Source: Candidatus Eiseniibacteriota bacterium (GTDB taxonomy: Bacteria > Orphanbacterota > Orphanbacteria > Orphanbacterales > Orphanbacteraceae). Taken from it: 56,270 bases of DNA. Positions 3,762-11,413 of this stretch are shown one piece after another; the first letter of the stretch is position 1, and every line of letters begins with the position of its first letter. The DNA lies in NCBI GenBank assembly GCA_043809585.1, contig JBDROZ010000097.1, positions 1 to 56,270 of the forward strand, in the 5' to 3' direction. A model generated the notes under the pieces. That model ran no database searches, was not told the origin of the DNA, and saw nothing but the letters and a program-made list of their open reading frames with translations. Made by a program: the position numbers and the translations under genes.

Positions 3762-4511
3762 TTACGAGTCCTCGACCGGACGGGAAAAGGCCCGGTCCAC
3801 GAGAAGGGGAAGGATCTCCGCCGCCTTCCCCCGGAAGGAGAGGTCCGCGAGGGGCGTCAGGGGCGTCTCCTCCGGGTTCACCTCCACGAGGCGCGCCCCC
3901 CGGTCTTTCGCGATCAGGGGGAACGATGCGGCGGGGTAGACGATCGCCGACGTGCCGATCACGAGGAAGAGGTCCGCCGACGCCGATGCCCGGTGGGCCT
4001 TCGCGATCGCATTCTCCGGGAGCGTCTCGCCGAACCAGACGATGTCGGGGCGCATCGTGTGGCCTCCCGGGCAGGCGGGGATCGTCTCCTCCTCCGCGCC
4101 GGTCAGTTCCCGATTCGCCCCGCACACCGTGCAGCGGGCGCGGAAGATGTCGCCGTGCACCTCGACGAGGTTTCGCGACCCGGCCCGCCGGTGCAGGCCG
4201 TCCACGTTCTGCGTGATCAGGGTGAACCCCGGCGCCCGCTCTTCGATGCGGGCGAGGGCGGCGTGGGCGGCGTTCGGCGCCGCGGCGGCGCAGATCCCCT
4301 GGCGGTAGCGGTACCACTCCCAGACGAGGATCGGGTCCCTCGCGAACGCCGACGGCGTCGCGAGGTCCTCGGCCCGGTACGTCCGCCAGAGCCCCCCCTC
4401 CCCGCGGAAGGTGGGGATGCCGCTCTCGGCGGAGACGCCCGCCCCGGTTAGGGCGACAATGGACCCGGCGCCGGCGAGCCACCGCGCGGCGAGGTTTGCG
4501 TGGTCTTCCAA
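3762..4511 (-). CDS. cobB: NAD-dependent protein deacylase (sirtuin, class III)
   Basis: GAGVSAESGIPTFRG, YRYR (YxxR), TQNVDGLH, HG, RPDIVWFGE and GTS motifs. TTG start at 4511 lies 9 nt after GGAGGAG. Confidence 0.92.
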   Translation of the reverse strand: MEDHANLAARWLAGAGSIVALTGAGVSAESGIPTFRGEGGLWRTYRAEDLATPSAFARDPILVWEWYRYRQGICAAAAPNAAHAALARIEERAPGFTLITQNVDGLHRRAGSRNLVEVHGDIFRARCTVCGANRELTGAEEETIPACPGGHTMRPDIVWFGETLPENAIAKAHRASASADLFLVIGTSAIVYPAASFPLIAKDRGARLVEVNPEETPLTPLADLSFRGKAAEILPLLVDRAFSRPVEDS

Positions 4512-4570
4512 GGGAACGGACTCCTCCCCGGGGCACGGGGCGGGGAAAAGAGGGCCGGAAAAGGCCGCGA

Positions 4571-5950
4571 TCAGCTCTTCACCCGTGAGGCGGTGCAGGC
4601 CACCATCTTCACGGCCTTCGTGTAGTCGAAATCGGGGCTCCACTCCTCGGTGTGGCACCCGAGACAGATCTTCTCGTCCACCTTCGGGCGGGCGTCTCCT
4701 CGGACGTGCTCGGTGCCCATGCCGTGGCACGACTCGCACTGCACGTTCCAGAGGGCCGGCTCGAGGGAGGTCCTCGGGTGGCCGGTGCTCTTGCCGTATC
4801 CGACGGTGTGGCAGTTCCAGCACTCCGGGTTTTCCCACTCCTCGCTCTGGGCGACCGATTGAAACGCCTGCGCGTGTGGTGTGGTGGCCCAAAACGATTG
4901 AACGTCCGCGTGGCAGAGGGCGCACTTAACGCCCCCCATGTACTCCGCGGCGATCTCCTTCTGCTTCACCTCCCCGGCTTCGGCCTTGTCCGGGCTCCTT
5001 TCGTTCTTCTTCGGAATCCGGTTCCCGTTTTCGTCCAGATCGAGATAGGTCCAGGTGATCGCCTTGATGTGCTCGTCGAAAGGACCGCCGTCGAGCTTCA
5101 GTTCATAGGTATGGCCACTGAAGGTCTGGACCTGCTTCTTCTCGACCGTGAGCGTCAGTTCGCCGAGCCAATCGCTACGGGCGCCCGAGGCGGCGAGGAT
5201 GACGCCGTTCTCCTTGACCGGTTCGTCGAGCTTCTTGCCGCCGTAACCGACCAGGACCACGTCGTAGCCGGCGAGGTCGGCGGTCCACTCCTTGGCCTTG
5301 TCGAGACCGGCGTGGGCGATGATCACCGTCACGTCGACCTTCTTGCCGCGAAGGGCCTGCAGTATCTCGTGGGAGGACTCCAGGGGGTCGGCGAGATCGA
5401 TACCCTCCCGCTCCTTCAAGGTCCGGGGAACCACGGCGGCGCCGCCTATGGTCGCGGTGACGCCCACCTTGAGACGGCCGACCTGGACGATGCGGTACGG
5501 CTCGAACCGGTAGTCGCCCGTTTCGGTGTCCATGATATTGTTGGAGACGATGTGGAGGCCGCGCACCGAGATTTCCTGCTCCAGCTCGTCCAGACCCCAG
5601 CTGATCTCCTTCTCGCCGACGGTGAGCACGTCGTACTTCATGTACTGCAGCGCGTCGAGAGAGATCGGCGTGTCGTAACCGTACGGGGGGTTCTTCCGCG
5701 CCACGAAGTTGCCCGTGTCGATGAGGAGCACGGGGTTCTCGGCGCGCTTCGCGGTGACATCGGCGGCCCGCCGGGCCAGCCCTCCTTTATTCTTGGAGTG
5801 TCACCCGCACGGCTTCAATTCGCCGACGGTCTCGTTCGAGAAGACGATCGAAAACGTCTCGGGCCCCTTCGGGCCGAAGAGCCCGAAGAACGTGCACCCG
5901 CTCCCCATGAGAAGCAGGGCGCCGAGCCCCGCCAGGATCCGCTTTTTCAT
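4571..5950 (-). CDS. Selenocysteine-containing lipoprotein: UshA/5'-nucleotidase-like N-terminal domain fused to a tetraheme cytochrome c (459 aa, Sec at codon 50)
   Basis: ATG at 5950 with an upstream GGAGG. The N-terminus reads MKKRILAGLGALLLMGSGC (lipobox-like). An in-frame TGA at 5803-5801 lies within GELKPCG-U-HSKNKGGLARRA and the frame continues into the 4571-5731 ORF. Four CxxCH motifs: CALCH, CWNCH, CESCH, CLGCH. Confidence 0.88.
5763..5780 (-). promoter_or_regulatory. Candidate bacterial SECIS hairpin
   Basis: The minus strand reads GC-U-GGCCC[GGC]GGGCC-GC, a stem with a bulged U and a G-starting loop 28 nt after the UGA. Confidence 0.65.
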
Positions 5951-6014
5951 GGCCGCTTCCTACCTCCTTAACTTCCGCAGGACGGCTCTTGGGGGCAAAT
6001 GTTACAGATTCATG

Positions 6015-6043
6015 AAGTTAGCACAGCCGGGCCGGGCTGTCAA
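6015..6043 (-). promoter_or_regulatory. Sigma70-type promoter for the selenoprotein gene
   Basis: TTGACA-17 bp-TAACTT with an extended -10 TG on the minus strand. Confidence 0.65.
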
Positions 6044-6143
6044 GGAGCACGCCGATCCGCCGACCCCGGTCACACCCCGCCCCGGGAAGGGATGTTCCCG
6101 TGCAAGATGAGTGGGGAATGCGTGCAAGAGGGTTGCATGGGAG

Positions 6144-6199
6144 CCCGAAGTGCTATCTTCCTCGGACCCCTCCTCTGCACCTTGGAGCAGTGGTGCTCG
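6144..6199. repeat. Dispersed repeat family D; inverted copy at 33382-33438, partial direct copy at about 6354-6377
   Basis: gctatcttcctcggacccctcctctgcaccttggagcagtggtgctcg here versus the reverse complement of the 33.4-kb copy, gctatcctcctcggactcctcctccgcgccctggagcagttgtgctcg. Confidence 0.75.
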
Positions 6200-6422
6200 T
6201 GTGCAGTACCCGTCCGGAGGGGGACAGGGTCCGCTGAGGTCAAACTTGTGTCTTCCGAGCCGGAGGCTCGGGCGGAACCAGTCCCCCACTCATTCCAGAA
6301 TGGCTGAGCTCAGATGAGCAATGCACCGGCTCATTCCAAAGTTCTATTCTCCCCGGACTCCTCCTCTGCACCTTGGAATGGTGGGTGGGGTTGGGGAAGT
6401 TAATACCGCTCCGGCGGCGCGA

Positions 6423-6583
6423 GGGGACCGGCTTCGGGAGGGAGGGGGGCATCACCGGGGAGTTGTTGCCGTCTTCCTCAACGCCACCTCTACGAGCCCG
6501 GAGAATGGGAGGGTTCTCTCCCGCCGTGCGACGAGCGTCCCAGTCTGCCCCCACATCCCTCCCGGAGCCGATCCCCCGCCCCG
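6423..6583. repeat. Dispersed ~160-bp repeat family C, copy 1 (inverted relative to 6829-6994 and 56135-56270)
   Basis: Core cctctacgagcccggagaatgggagggttctctcccgc is the reverse complement of the cores at about 6887-6925 and 56198-56235. Confidence 0.85.
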
Positions 6584-6662
6584 CCTACGAGCGATGACAC
6601 GGCGTCGAGGGAGTTGCCCCATCTCTCGAGCGCGGCACGAATCGAACGCGCGACCGGGCTTG

Positions 6663-6689
6663 TCCGCCGAAGCCGCAGGCGAAGGCGGA
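6663..6689. repeat. REP-like palindrome TCCGCCGAAGCC-GCA-GGCGAAGGCGGA
   Basis: Imperfect hairpin with GAA/GAA internal mismatch, a typical extragenic palindrome form. Single copy in the window. Confidence 0.55.
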
Positions 6690-6722
6690 TGGGCGAACGC
6701 CATCCATTCCCCTTCCGGCGGC

Positions 6723-6769
6723 CCTTCGATACGGCTCTCGCTACGCTCGAGCCTACTCAGGACGAACGG
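6723..6769. repeat. REP-like family 'CCGTTCGTCCTGAGT...TATCGAAGG'; other copies 17693-17739, 18698-18744, 19716-19763, degenerate 56077-56109
   Basis: Conserved outer arms enclose a variable inner hairpin, with four different inner stems among five copies. Confidence 0.85.
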
Positions 6770-6828
6770 AATCATCAGATCCGGCTTCGGCAGTCCTTGC
6801 TGATCATTCCCTGCCACGGGCGGGTAGC

Positions 6829-6994
6829 CGGGGCGGGGAATCGGAGGAGGGATGGGGATGGGGCAGGCTAGGACGCTCGTCGTGCTGCGGGAGAATACCC
6901 TCCCATTCTCCGGGCGCGTAGAGGAGGCGTTGCGGAGGACAAGCACAGCTCCCCGGTCATGCCCCGCCCCTCCCGACTCCGATCCCCCGCCCCG
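6829..6994. repeat. Repeat family C, copy 2, preceded by a fragment of family B (6788-6838)
   Basis: Inverted match to 6423-6583 and direct match to 56135-56270. Confidence 0.85.
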
Positions 6995-7037
6995 GCGGCT
7001 TCCCCCAGGAGCGCGTGCGCGCCGCGCGTGCTCCCCC

Positions 7038-10000
7038 TTACAATCCGAGCCGCCGCTCCCCCTTCTCATAGTAGATCTCCGGGTGCGCCTTGATCCGGAT
7101 GTTGAAGTAGTACTCCCACTCGTCCCCCGAAAACCGGGCACGGAAGCTCGCCTCCCAGCAGTGCAGGTCCCGCTTGAGCCGGAGCCCCTGGCTCACCGTC
7201 TTCCGCTCCTCGAGGTCGTACCGGTTCTCGTAGTCCAGGTCCCATCCCTTCGTTAGATTGATGCCGAGGCTCGAGTTCAGCCACTGCGTGAAGTTGTCCC
7301 GCGTCGTCCCCCGGGAGAACCGGTGGGAGAAGCTCGCGTTCCAGGGGATCACCGACGAGTCCCGAGGGCCCTGCCGCCGTCCCCCTCCCCCGAGCTCGTC
7401 GCCGAAACCGGTCTCCGCCGTCACCGAGCGGTCCTCCTCGAAGGGGGAACGCTCCGTCGGCGACGAGAGCGTCTCGGTCGGGTCCTGCTCCTCCCCCTCC
7501 CCCTCCCCTCCGCTTCCCCCCTTCTTCGATTCGCCGAGACTGCCCGAAAACCGGACGCTCGACTGAAACGAAAGGGACGTGAAGCGCCTCGACCTCACGT
7601 CGTGGGTGAGGGAGAGCTCGGAGCTGAAGGGGCGGACCGGCTCGAATCGGAGCGACGACGAGAGTGGGGACCACGGGTATTCTCCCGGATCCCTCTGCTC
7701 CAGATCGTAGGAGATCGAGTTCGAGAGGGCGAGGAGCTGGTCGTTCCGCTTCTCCTCCCCCTTCCACATGTACTTCGTCTGCAGTTTGTTCCCCAGGCTG
7801 AAGGAGACTCTCCTGCTCCGCCGCCGGGAACCGCCGAAGCCCCCGACACTATAGAAGCGGTCCTGCTCGTTCCCGTTCTCGTCCCGGTAGAAGTGGTCTT
7901 CGTTCTTCGGCTGGTAGGTGAAGGAGACGGAGGGTGTGATGATGTGGCGGACCCCCACGAGGGGCCCGACGCGGGGGAAGAACGTGCCGTAAATATTCGT
8001 GTTCACCGACGACGAGGCGTTCCACATCCCCCGGCGCACGTACCGCTGCCCGACCTTGTCCCGGTCGTACCAGGTCTCGCTCCATCCGAATCGGGTGCTG
8101 TAGCCGAGCCACCCCCGGAACTTGCGGGAGAAGTTGGCCGAGAGATCGTGGTCCCATCCGGCGCGGTCCTCCCGCTTGTCGCCGCTTTTCTCTCTCGAGT
8201 TTAGCAGCTTCGACGAGTACTGATAGTAGACGTCGTTGAACCACTTCCTCTCGATACTCTTCCCCCGCTTCGAATCGGCCGGCGGGATCAGCTCCCGGCG
8301 GCTCTGGGTGAACTGGAGCGAGGGGAGAGTCTCGTCGATGCGGTCCTGGTCGAGCCGCTCCGTCCGCGTCAGCTGCATCGAGAATGAGCGGTCGCTCCAC
8401 CGCTTCTTCAGGACCAGGTCCGACTTCAACGTCCGGTCGAGCTCCTCGAGGGTCGTCGACTGCTCCACCCGGTACGTCTTGTCGCTCACGAAGTTCGCCC
8501 GCATGGTGAGGTCCGTGCTCTCGCCGATCTCCTGGTTGTGGCCGGCCTGCACGCTCCACCGCCGCCGCCCCCCCTGGGAGCTCTGGTAGGACGAGCGGAC
8601 GGTCCCGTTCAGGAGATACCGGAGCCGGTATCGCCCGTCCAGATAGCTGACCCAATGGGAGTCCTCGAAGAAATCCCCCCGGAAAGTCAGGTCCGCGTAG
8701 TCGTTGATCGCCCAAAAATAACCGCCGTTCCGGACGAATCGCCCCTTGCTCTCGGAGAAGCCGAACTCGATCGTGGGGAGGATGAACCCGCTCGAGCGCC
8801 CCCCCTTCAGCGGGAAGAGGTAGTACGGGAGGGCGAGGACGGGGATGTCGGCAATGTGCATCACGATCGGCCGCACCACGATCTTGTCGTCGAGATAGAT
8901 CTTCATCCGGTTCGCGAGAAAGTAGTAGTGCGGGTCCGGATCGTCGCAGCTCGTGTACTTCCCCCCTTCGAGGAGGAGCGTCTTGTTCGACGCGCGGTGG
9001 ATCCTGTCGCCGTAGCAGATGCCCGCCTCGTAGTGCGTCACGCCGTCGTAAATCGTCCCCTGCCCGACGTCCACGTTGTAGACCATGCGCCGGCCGTCCA
9101 CCTCCTGGTCACCGTCCTTCAGGATCGGGTTCCCCTGGGCGGTCACGAGGTCCCGGTCGATGTCGAATCGGATCCGCTCCGCGTCGAGCTGCATCTGCCC
9201 CTGGTCGACGTGGGCGTTCCCCTGGAGGTAGACCCGGTTCCGCCTCACGTCGAAGCGGACCCGGTCCCCCCGGTAGCGGACCGTCTCGCTCTTTTCCGTC
9301 GCCGAGTCGGCATCCATTTCCACCGAGAGCTGGTCCCCCGTGGCCTTTCCCGACACTTCGATCGTCTCGAGCTCCTCTTCGCCCAAATGGAAGCGGATCG
9401 TATCCCCCTCGGCGTGATTCCTCTCCCGGCGGGCTTTCATCCCGTCCCGCACCGACCGGTCGCTCTTGGCCCTCCCCGTCACCGCCACCTTCCGGAGATC
9501 GCCGGCGTCGAAGAAGAGCGTCATCCGGTCCCCCGCCGTTCTCCCCTCCTCGGAGGTCAGCGAATCCGCACCCTCGCTCTCCATGGTCGCGCCCCCCCGG
9601 ACCACAACCCGCTCGATCTCCTCCTCTTCGGCGGAGAACCGGACGTCGATCGAGTCCCCCCACAGGCTCTCCCCCTCCCGCACGAGCCGGGGATCGCCGG
9701 TCAGGAAGACGAAGTTCGAATCGCTTTCCATGACGGTGACTCCGGCGAAGGTCTCCACCTTCCGGTAGTCGCCGTGCGTGGAACCCCGGGCGATCACGCG
9801 CCCCGCCTCCGGCTCGATCGTGATCGTGTCCCCCGTGAGCGTTCCGGAGACCTCGCCGAGGCTGTCGAGTTCCTCCATGACCGGGTCCCCGGTCACGACG
9901 ATCCGCACGTTGTCGAAGTCGGCCCGGCGCCCCCGGACCCGGTACGACTCCCGGTAGAGTTCGAGGCTCACACCGCCGAGGGCGGTTCCCCCCTCCGCGC

Positions 10001-10526
10001 CGGGATCGACCTCGAGCGTGTCGGCGAGGACTTGCCTCGCCGAGTCGAGAACGGCCACGGACCCCGTGAAGAGCACCCGCTCCGTCTCCTCGTCCTCTTC
10101 GCTCAGATAGAAGATCGCCCGGTCGGCGACGATGGTCCTTCCCGCCTCCACGACCATCACACCCTTGGGGTATTCGAGGGTCGAGCGCTCCTCGTCGATC
10201 ACCGCCACCCGGCCGTAGGCCCAGCTCTCATCCCGGTAGACCCGCGCGTCGCCGGAGAGCTGAAGGCGCCCCGTGCTCTCCCGCCAGATCCCCCGGCGCC
10301 CGAGGGCGGCGATCCGCCGGTCCGGCGCGAGGAAGCGCACGTTTCCCGCGAGGTCGAGGACCGGCTCCTCCCCCCGGAGGCCGCTCCCCCGGAGACGGTC
10401 GCCCGTGATGTAGACGGGAACGTCGGCCTTCTTCCCGGGAGGATCCGCGGAGAGGACGGGGGAGAGAGAAATGAGGACGAAGAGGAACGGAAGGGGCGTG
10501 AAACGGGGGGAACGCCGGCCGGTCAC
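7038..10526 (-). CDS. lptD: LPS assembly outer-membrane protein LptD with an extended multi-OstA N-terminus (about 1162 aa)
   Basis: GTG start overlaps the accD stop (GTGA). Signal peptide, repeated OstA-like beta segments, YTSCDDPDPHYY, RSSGFILP, and C-terminal RDLHCWE...YYFNIRI. Confidence 0.85.
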   Translation of the reverse strand: MTGRRSPRFTPLPFLFVLISLSPVLSADPPGKKADVPVYITGDRLRGSGLRGEEPVLDLAGNVRFLAPDRRIAALGRRGIWRESTGRLQLSGDARVYRDESWAYGRVAVIDEERSTLEYPKGVMVVEAGRTIVADRAIFYLSEEDEETERVLFTGSVAVLDSARQVLADTLEVDPGAEGGTALGGVSLELYRESYRVRGRRADFDNVRIVVTGDPVMEELDSLGEVSGTLTGDTITIEPEAGRVIARGSTHGDYRKVETFAGVTVMESDSNFVFLTGDPRLVREGESLWGDSIDVRFSAEEEEIERVVVRGGATMESEGADSLTSEEGRTAGDRMTLFFDAGDLRKVAVTGRAKSDRSVRDGMKARRERNHAEGDTIRFHLGEEELETIEVSGKATGDQLSVEMDADSATEKSETVRYRGDRVRFDVRRNRVYLQGNAHVDQGQMQLDAERIRFDIDRDLVTAQGNPILKDGDQEVDGRRMVYNVDVGQGTIYDGVTHYEAGICYGDRIHRASNKTLLLEGGKYTSCDDPDPHYYFLANRMKIYLDDKIVVRPIVMHIADIPVLALPYYLFPLKGGRSSGFILPTIEFGFSESKGRFVRNGGYFWAINDYADLTFRGDFFEDSHWVSYLDGRYRLRYLLNGTVRSSYQSSQGGRRRWSVQAGHNQEIGESTDLTMRANFVSDKTYRVEQSTTLEELDRTLKSDLVLKKRWSDRSFSMQLTRTERLDQDRIDETLPSLQFTQSRRELIPPADSKRGKSIERKWFNDVYYQYSSKLLNSREKSGDKREDRAGWDHDLSANFSRKFRGWLGYSTRFGWSETWYDRDKVGQRYVRRGMWNASSSVNTNIYGTFFPRVGPLVGVRHIITPSVSFTYQPKNEDHFYRDENGNEQDRFYSVGGFGGSRRRSRRVSFSLGNKLQTKYMWKGEEKRNDQLLALSNSISYDLEQRDPGEYPWSPLSSSLRFEPVRPFSSELSLTHDVRSRRFTSLSFQSSVRFSGSLGESKKGGSGGEGEGEEQDPTETLSSPTERSPFEEDRSVTAETGFGDELGGGGRRQGPRDSSVIPWNASFSHRFSRGTTRDNFTQWLNSSLGINLTKGWDLDYENRYDLEERKTVSQGLRLKRDLHCWEASFRARFSGDEWEYYFNIRIKAHPEIYYEKGERRLGL

Positions 10527-11413
10527 CGCCTCTCCGGATCCTCCCCGGACCCCGGGGCCGCCGAGGGCGGGGCGGGCGTGGGGAAATAGCGCAGCACCTT
10601 CGCGAGGGTGCTCTTCAGCTCCTTGCGGGGCACCACCATGTCCACCATGCCGTGTTCGAGGAGGAACTCGGAGCGCTGAAATCCCTCCGGGAGATCCTGG
10701 CCGATCGTCTGCTGGATCACCCGGGGGCCGGCGAAACCGACGAGCGCCTTCGGCTCGGCGATGATCACGTCCCCCTGCATGGCGAAGCTCGCCGACACGC
10801 CCCCCGTGGTCGGGTGGGTCACGATGGAAATGAAGGGGATCGAATTCTCGGCGAGCCTGGCGATGGCGACGCTCGTCTTGGCGAGCTGCATGAGCGAGAG
10901 GATCCCCTCCTGCATCCGGGCGCCGCCGGAAGAGGAGAGAATGACCAGGGGATGGCCGGTCTTGTAGGAGAGGTCGGCGGCGCGGACGATCTTCTCGCCC
11001 ATCACCGAGCCGAGGCTCCCGCCGCCGAAGGCGAACTCGAGCACCCCGAAGACCGAGCGGATCCCCTCGACGGCGCCGGTGCCCGTGCGGATCGCCTCCT
11101 TCATCCCCGTCTTCGCCTGGTACGCTTTGAGACGGTCGGGGTACTTCTTCGAGTCCCGGAAATGGAGTGGATCGGTCGGCTCGAGATCCATGTCCATCTC
11201 GCGCCACGTCCCCTCGTCGATCAGGATGCGGATGTAGTCGGCGGACCGGATGCGGAAGTGGAAGCCGCAGCCGTGGCAGGTCCAGAGGTTCCGCTCGAGC
11301 TCCTTCCGGTAGAGGATGTCCTCGCAATACTCGCATCGGACCCAGAGGCCGTCCGGGACGTTCTTCTTCTCGCCCCCCTTCAGGCCGCGGTCACTCTTTC
11401 GAAACCAGGCCAC
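10523..11413 (-). CDS. accD: Acetyl-CoA carboxylase carboxyltransferase beta subunit
   Basis: GLWVRCEYC...CHGC zinc finger, GGSLGSVMGEKI, SGGARMQEG, PTTGGVSASFA, FQRSEFLLEHG. Confidence 0.97.
   Translation of the reverse strand: MAWFRKSDRGLKGGEKKNVPDGLWVRCEYCEDILYRKELERNLWTCHGCGFHFRIRSADYIRILIDEGTWREMDMDLEPTDPLHFRDSKKYPDRLKAYQAKTGMKEAIRTGTGAVEGIRSVFGVLEFAFGGGSLGSVMGEKIVRAADLSYKTGHPLVILSSSGGARMQEGILSLMQLAKTSVAIARLAENSIPFISIVTHPTTGGVSASFAMQGDVIIAEPKALVGFAGPRVIQQTIGQDLPEGFQRSEFLLEHGMVDMVVPRKELKSTLAKVLRYFPTPAPPSAAPGSGEDPERR

Follow-up and report, generated by a model that had tools for sequence, protein, structure and literature searches.

The window analyzed in this study is a stretch of 56,270 nucleotides from Candidatus Eiseniibacteriota bacterium (assembly GCA_043809585.1, contig JBDROZ010000097.1, positions 1 to 56,270), and the gene under study lies on its minus strand between a Sir2-family gene downstream and a gene for a 1432-residue LptD-like protein upstream. 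In the program-made list of open reading frames (ORFs), one minus-strand frame holds a 386-residue ORF with a GTG start (4571..5731) and a 49-residue ORF that ends on a TGA (5801..5950). When this in-frame TGA (5801..5803, minus strand) was read as selenocysteine (Sec, U), the two were joined into a single protein of 459 residues, ...GELKPCGUHSKNKGGLARRA..., in which U is residue 50 and stands in the motif PCGU. The full coding sequence (4574..5950, minus strand) comprises 459 codons with Sec at codon 50 and one TGA inside, and is closed by a terminal TGA stop at 4573-4571. The N-terminus reads MKKRILAGLGALLLMGSGC, and the C-terminus falls at the same place as in homologs. An earlier note on this DNA had described the gene as cut by the ORF caller at 5731, with the frame continuing through the TGA at 5803-5801, and had proposed a hidden selenoprotein; the ORF list and the translation with TGA as U agreed with the former, and the evidence given below supports the latter. 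The product is read here, at a probability of roughly 0.8, as an exported UshA-like CxU/PCGU selenoprotein that would act as a heme-wired (seleno)thiol oxidoreductase and not as a phosphoesterase.

Every one of the 10 genomes examined from the window's phylum had homologs, and all 24 homologous frames analyzed in them carried one TGA at the same column, within (E/K)P(C/V)GU. Nucleotide differences among 8 orthologs were counted by codon position over 23 codons on each side of the site; third positions dominated both before the TGA (111/64/264) and after it (138/90/240), from which it follows that translation covers the codons separating the TGA from the GTG of the called ORF. Of 18 distant full-length proteins in the alignment, 16 had Cys at the Sec column, and these Cys homologs run unbroken through the site. 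At 60 full-length loci from other phyla the U50 column held Cys in 30 and Sec in 28, with 2 undetermined. The genome of the window (G000, 97.47% complete) encodes tRNA-Sec, selA, selB and selD, all above curated cut-offs. The earlier note had named a lack of this machinery, homologs without Cys or Sec at the UGA column, and reads exposing the TGA as an error as outcomes that would defeat its proposal, and none of the three was encountered. The selD gene (G000 C19:30755-31678, L010) is a selenoprotein gene too: its matched stretch has one in-frame TGA, at codon 11, followed by a 7-bp hairpin.

It is extremely improbable that no recoding takes place, that is, that translation truly ends at the TGA, or that the TGA arose through a sequencing error or pseudogene decay, with the 386-residue ORF from the GTG at 5731 as the real product, or that TGA is a sense codon in this organism. 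Public gene calls do cut the gene at this place, and the 28 best database hits are 352-400 amino acids long with 75-85% query coverage. Against this account stand the TGA column in every homologous frame, the coding constraint on both sides of it and the continuous Cys homologs. An independent run gave a 170-nucleotide contig (X4 record 14; a single contig of low depth) that covers 5691-5859 and keeps the TGA, amid synonymous differences in the three codons before it (5804, 5807, 5810). TGA was the commonest terminator in the genome, ending 1328 of 2474 frames of at least 500 codons, and since it ends this gene and most long frames, a TGA-sense code is argued against. The product of the truncated ORF would bear four heme-attachment sites but lack a signal peptide, and CcsA-type heme maturation genes were found in the genome (3 matches above cut-off). 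As heme attachment requires export, read-through of the TGA is needed, in line with the earlier argument that the signal peptide upstream of the UGA is indispensable. Judged from these comparisons, the UGA at codon 50 is recoded as selenocysteine and the gene is a genuine selenoprotein gene.

A bulged-U hairpin after the UGA, which the earlier note had placed at 21-38 nucleotides, was recovered by folding and by covariation and spans 20-39 nucleotides 3' of the UGA (5762..5781, minus strand). This selenocysteine insertion sequence (SECIS)-like hairpin, GGC-U-GGCCC/GGC/GGGCC-GCC, consists of 3 + 5 bp, closed by a GGC loop and interrupted by one bulged U. A 72-nucleotide segment folded at -31.2 kcal/mol (z = -2.16), and 5 of 200 shuffles folded equally well. 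Across 24 sequences, 88% of cells paired and 4 of 8 pairs were altered on both sides; the covariation score was reached by 0 of 500 shuffles, slid controls were 33-50% paired, and RNAalifold recovered the same helix. The apical loop lies at +31-33 from the U of the UGA, and at +30-32 in the organism's own selD; the spacing expected of a bacterial SECIS element is 16-37 nucleotides. An Rfam search of 4300-7300 returned nothing at the hairpin and no SECIS model among its matches.

Translation is predicted to start at the ATG at 5950-5948 (minus strand), which is preceded at 12 nucleotides by a Shine-Dalgarno-like AAGGAGG (5963..5969, minus strand) and at 5 nucleotides by a second purine run, AGGAAG, both read from the sequence. 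The hexamers TTGACA (6043-6038) and TAACTT (6020-6015) are legible further upstream with a gap of 17 nucleotides. A consensus scan of 4300-7200 gave 0 promoter-like sites, and the pair fails it because the second hexamer matches at only 3 of 6 positions. The start codon and ribosome-binding site described in the earlier note were thus retained, and its promoter was dropped. The first codons encode a putative signal peptide (5894..5950, minus strand) with the lipobox-like end GSGC (Cys19). Its full stretch, LLMGSGC, has Gly at -3 instead of the Leu, Val or Ile of the lipobox consensus. A hydrophobic N-terminus with Cys at the equivalent place was found in 19 of 22 listed frames of the phylum (groups A and C), and ortholog lipobox-like ends included LAGC, LTGC, FAGC and VLGGC. 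The protein is probably exported, and probably a lipid-anchored periplasmic protein. A contig from an RNA library (X1) covers 4675-4879 only, may be DNA carry-over, and is no evidence of expression.

The N-terminal domain of about 250 residues (5123..5866, minus strand) is 5'-nucleotidase (UshA/SoxB)-like, as judged from NF041198 positions 20-274, a profile search of the PDB (5'-nucleotidases, E 3e-36; SoxB, E 5e-27) and Foldseek. An AlphaFold model of the protein had a mean predicted local distance difference test (pLDDT) of 85.6 and a predicted template modelling score (pTM) of 0.66; Foldseek matched it to 3ivd (E 9e-21, template modelling (TM) score 0.52). The metal-ligand motifs were compared with those of a canonical 5'-nucleotidase of the same genome, on contig C47, in which all motifs are intact. 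Canonical NDLH is replaced by NETV in the window protein, DAGD by DTGN, GNHE by GEKE and GGHSH by VGYGG, and motif IV, canonical SHEG, reads AHAG with its His kept. The phosphoesterase ligand motifs DxH, GD, GNH(E/D) and GH are thus lost in the window protein, with only the motif IV His left, and the alignment sustains the degeneracy that the earlier note had read in DxH, DxGD and GNHE. No Pfam match to the 5'-nucleotidase C-terminal substrate-binding domain was obtained at E up to 0.1; a cytochrome stands in its place. Because the ligand motifs and this C-terminal domain are both lost, the window protein is, by its predicted features, not a phosphoesterase or nucleotidase.

Over 74 family sequences the classical ligand columns were not conserved. 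Conservation was found instead at G43, L45, P47, C48, G49, C/U50, G56, G57, R60 and R61, and also at D78, G80, G112, E/D115 and D230. Part of the old metal site does persist in the family, with His213 in 46 of 74 sequences and His at column 236 in 34 of 74, and D78 and E/D115 are among the conserved residues. These observations could be explained by a new metal site, in which Sec50 and Cys48 would take the place of the lost His/Asp ligands and coordinate another metal where the dimetal site used to be, to be oxidised or reduced by the hemes; precedents for a Sec-bound metal are formate dehydrogenase and [NiFeSe] hydrogenase. The surviving ligand columns vary, however: at column 40, 24 of 48 have D and 9 have E, column 81 is divided among N (32), D (23) and G (10), and the window protein carries Tyr at column 236. 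The neighbouring genes included none for a metal chaperone or a cofactor, and this explanation is improbable.

The C-terminal part of the protein (4619..5128, minus strand) consists of a linker and a cytochrome c554-like tetraheme domain, as identified by NF041198 positions 348-519, by PF13435 (51.8 bits against a cut-off of 20.8) and by cytochrome c554 (PDB 1bvb, E 3.8e-10). Its four CxxCH motifs lie at 4910-4924, 4808-4822, 4724-4738 and 4652-4666 on the minus strand (C343, C377, C405 and C429). The four motifs, which the earlier note had seen after the nucleotidase-like domain, were invariant together with H359 and H415 in 74 of 74 aligned sequences. Residue 452 (4595..4597, minus strand) is Cys in the window protein and His in most relatives, and is the presumed distal ligand of one heme. 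The column held His in 57 and Cys in 15 of 73 sequences, and His in 137 and Cys in 3 of 147 further representatives; the Cys452 rows are the window's closest relatives and P0060. Cys452 would make one heme His/Cys-ligated.

A His/Cys-ligated heme could also point to a small-molecule chalcogen or metalloid enzyme, in which Cys and Sec on a SoxB-like scaffold would act on species of sulfur, selenium or arsenic, for example polysulfide, thiosulfate-type adducts or selenite, and the hemes would carry electrons away or supply them. Such hemes occur in sulfur enzymes, e.g. SoxA and TsdA. Cys stands at position 452 in the window's clade, and the N-domain is related to SoxB (TIGR04486, E 3.5e-19, in addition to the PDB match above). 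The SoxB score was nevertheless only 68.5 bits against a cut-off of 550, Cys452 is rare in the wider family (the 3 of 147 representatives), and the conserved neighbours included no sox, dsr, ars or related genes. We regard this alternative as unlikely, though deserving of some weight.

The best NCBIfam match of the window protein, with C substituted for U, was NF041198 (UshA_like_PCGU, "UshA-like (seleno)protein"; E 7e-70, 236.1 bits), an equivalog model of 519 positions with a curated cut-off of 275 bits. In a six-frame search of the genome this model matched the window gene twice, at 20-274 (the nucleotidase-like part) and at 348-519 (the heme domain), and a paralog on contig C76 of the same genome reached the cut-off with 275.7 bits. 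The fusion to a cytochrome, which the earlier note had pointed out, is not peculiar to this gene, since the tetraheme half (positions 348-519) is standard NF041198 architecture. The family is large: a profile search gave 44,171 hits at E<=0.001, 27,137 at E<=1e-10 and 7,813 at E<=1e-30, although ordinary nucleotidases and cytochromes probably make up some of its lower-scoring hits. The family was distributed over many phyla. In a tree of 76 rows, from which L061, L120, L126 and partial matches were left out, the window clade and the C76 paralog fell inside one clade of 42 Sec rows (Shimodaira-Hasegawa-like approximate likelihood ratio test, 95), and the whole tree was explained by three Sec/Cys changes.

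On this sequence evidence the window gene is a member of the broader UshA-like CxU/PCGU selenoprotein family, which is already catalogued. The "UshA-like, CxU" selenoprotein has been listed since 2008, when the Global Ocean Sampling selenoproteome placed "COG0737, UshA-like", CxU, among the major selenoprotein families (PMC2398784); the row of its table, with headings as we understand them, gives 76 Sec sequences, 20 samples and 92 Cys homologs (PMC2398784). Two reviews also list it (PMC9312934, PMC13188914), the more recent of which, from 2026, gives the UshA-like CxU selenoprotein together with NF041198 (PMC13188914). The passages on this family in the three papers (PMC2398784, PMC9312934, PMC13188914) mention no function and no heme domain, and to that extent agree with the earlier note, in which such proteins were described as recorded by bioinformatics only. 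No paper was found in a search for literature combining selenocysteine, a multiheme cytochrome and a nucleotidase, or a fusion of c554 and a nucleotidase.

The neighbours conserved across loci were LptD, HU, Mur ligase, ROK, DUF1573 and DsbA. At 54 loci from other phyla, LptD was upstream in 12 and an HU gene was present in 10; the window has no HU gene at the equivalent place. The order of LptD, HU and this gene was considered as a functional clue and set aside, as it looks like housekeeping synteny within related phyla. A DUF1573 gene was directly upstream in 7 of the 54 loci and a DsbA-like gene directly downstream in 5, and all five DsbA-like products had signal peptides and CxxC. Fusions were seen in long family members, 8 of 19 being fused to DUF1573 and 3 to a DsbA-like domain. 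In three metagenomic proteins of about 1200 residues (P0122-P0124), one UshA-like domain with CEC/CDC and another with CGC flank a DsbA-like domain, and a tetraheme cytochrome comes last; among these three the Pfam DSBA cut-off was exceeded by P0122 only. The window genome encodes a DsbA-family protein of 303 residues with CPYC and a signal or anchor (G000 C106:9067-9504; L135:1465-2376, minus strand).

No match to DsbB or VKOR was obtained in the 97.5%-complete window genome. Of the 10 genomes of the phylum, which are related and not independent, none gave a DsbB and one gave a VKOR; in the five genomes with a DsbA neighbour, whose completeness is not known, DsbB was found in 1 and VKOR in none. 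A speculative and rather unlikely extension of the main reading is that the family replaces DsbB/VKOR, with electrons passing from DsbA-type proteins to Cys-Gly-Sec, on to the four hemes and into the respiratory chain; a reverse, reductive route is also possible. If true, this would make disulfide-bond formation quinone-independent in the many phyla that bear the family. The joint absence of DsbB and VKOR is common in anaerobes too.

The most likely mechanism under the preferred reading, as a heme-wired (seleno)thiol oxidoreductase, would be a Cys-Gly-Sec redox centre wired to the c554-like heme chain, in line with the Cys/Sec site wired to hemes that the earlier note had proposed. By homology, Cys48-Gly-Sec50 would sit after the lost DxH position, in the loop of the former dimetal site. 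Cys48 and Sec50 would cycle between the selenol/thiol state and a selenenylsulfide or an adduct, and this centre would exchange electrons with the four-heme chain, which in turn would connect to the periplasmic respiratory electron pool. The centre might act on protein thiols reached via DsbA-type partners, on small compounds of sulfur or selenium, or on a bound metal; the best lead may be thiol/disulfide chemistry on DsbA-type proteins.

Several observations weigh against this reading or parts of it. The hairpin helix overlaps the conserved GGLARRA codons, so its conservation is partly protein-driven; the main compensatory change (CG in 12 sequences, GC in 9) coincides with the division between two paralog groups and may have occurred just once; and in one ortholog (L023, G001) this hairpin is missing, while another hairpin stands closer to the UGA. 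The window protein scores under the NF041198 cut-off (236.1 vs 275 bits), and because the equivalog cut-off was not reached, the gene was filed as a divergent relative of that model. The family literature found consists of catalogue entries, with no experiment on any member. In the AlphaFold model (pTM 0.66) residues 48-53, the CGU loop, have pLDDT <50. No DsbA gene adjoins the selenoprotein gene in the window, where the neighbours are the Sir2 and LptD-like genes. Finally, the first Cys of the motif is replaced in two Sec forms, PVGU (L033, a paralog in G004) and PAGU (L097). Since L033 has Val and L097 has Ala at this position, a Cys-Sec selenenylsulfide is not universally obligatory, and Sec alone may be the essential residue.

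The paralog on C76 is a second UshA-like tetraheme selenoprotein of the same genome (G000 C76:13019-14389; L030:1459-2922), with the motif LEPCGU and 33% identity to the window protein. It comes after genes for a UbiE-type methyltransferase and RtcB, and the gene beyond it, on the opposite strand, is beta-helix/NosD-like. The methyltransferase was considered as a functional clue and rejected as a single case. A third paralog group was found in one genus of the phylum (L024:1480-2460, L025:1444-2484, L026:1504-2481); its members have AGELKPCGU, no cytochrome domain, and an N-terminal transmembrane-like helix in place of the lipobox, and score 117 bits with NF041198 and 34 bits with NF049981.

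The spacer of 1 kb between the LptD-like gene and the selenoprotein gene (5990-7040) is packed with direct and inverted repeats, for example two 111-nucleotide arms with 83% complementarity at 6441-6551 and 6860-6970. A unit around 6139-6300, some 80-160 nucleotides long, had at least 80 matches spread over many contigs of this genome, and looks like a dispersed element of the kind of repetitive extragenic palindromes (REP) or miniature inverted-repeat transposable elements (MITE). Two Rfam matches to mir-H1 in this repeat-rich spacer were both sub-threshold and were rejected. The LptD-like protein (7038-11336, minus strand, 1432 residues) carries PF19838 and the LptD N-terminal domain. Its longest ORF has an N-terminal extension of about 250 residues that is of low complexity and rich in Arg, Gly and Pro, and the true start may lie further downstream.

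The practical value of the analysis is a correction of annotation. Existing records of this gene and of its nearest public relatives describe proteins that are cut short at the N-terminus and have no signal peptide: 28 of the 28 best database hits are truncated, and 28 of the best 150 family representatives start just after the Sec column. The selenoprotein reading is correct, though it will not surprise a selenoprotein specialist. A biochemical assignment would explain a widespread periplasmic selenoenzyme, for which the link to DsbA and the clade-specific change from His to Cys at a presumed heme ligand are concrete experimental leads.

Among known systems, the closest is NF041198, with which the window protein has in common the two-domain layout and the PCG[U/C] motif; it differs in having Cys rather than His at column 452, and at its score the NCBI pipeline would not name it from this model. 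NF049981 (UshA-like selenoprotein family 2) is similar only weakly, at 40.2 bits over the first ~90 residues around the Sec motif, against a cut-off of 140 for a model of 262 positions. The UshA-like CxU family of the literature is defined by homology to UshA/COG0737 and a CxU motif, and the window protein has both.

The nucleotidases E. coli UshA and CD73 (1ush and 4h1s, among others) share the N-domain fold (Foldseek E ~1e-20, TM ~0.5) and the GG(L/V)ARR helix after the first strand, whereas in the window protein 4 of 5 metal-ligand motifs are lost and the C-terminal domain is swapped for a cytochrome. The SoxB thiosulfohydrolase belongs to the same N-domain superfamily by its TIGR04486 match, far under the cut-off as that match is; SoxB retains a dimanganese site, whose ligands are not kept in the window protein. 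For the heme half, the nearest counterpart is cytochrome c554 of Nitrosomonas (1bvb, 1ft5), whose first three CxxCH motifs and intervening His align with the window protein. Three conserved extra His-type columns (359, 415 and 452) are available for four hemes; c554 has one five-coordinate heme, and three distal ligands for four hemes would match a single five-coordinate heme of that kind. Whereas c554 is a free electron carrier, the tetraheme unit of the window protein is a domain of a larger predicted enzyme and has Cys at column 452.

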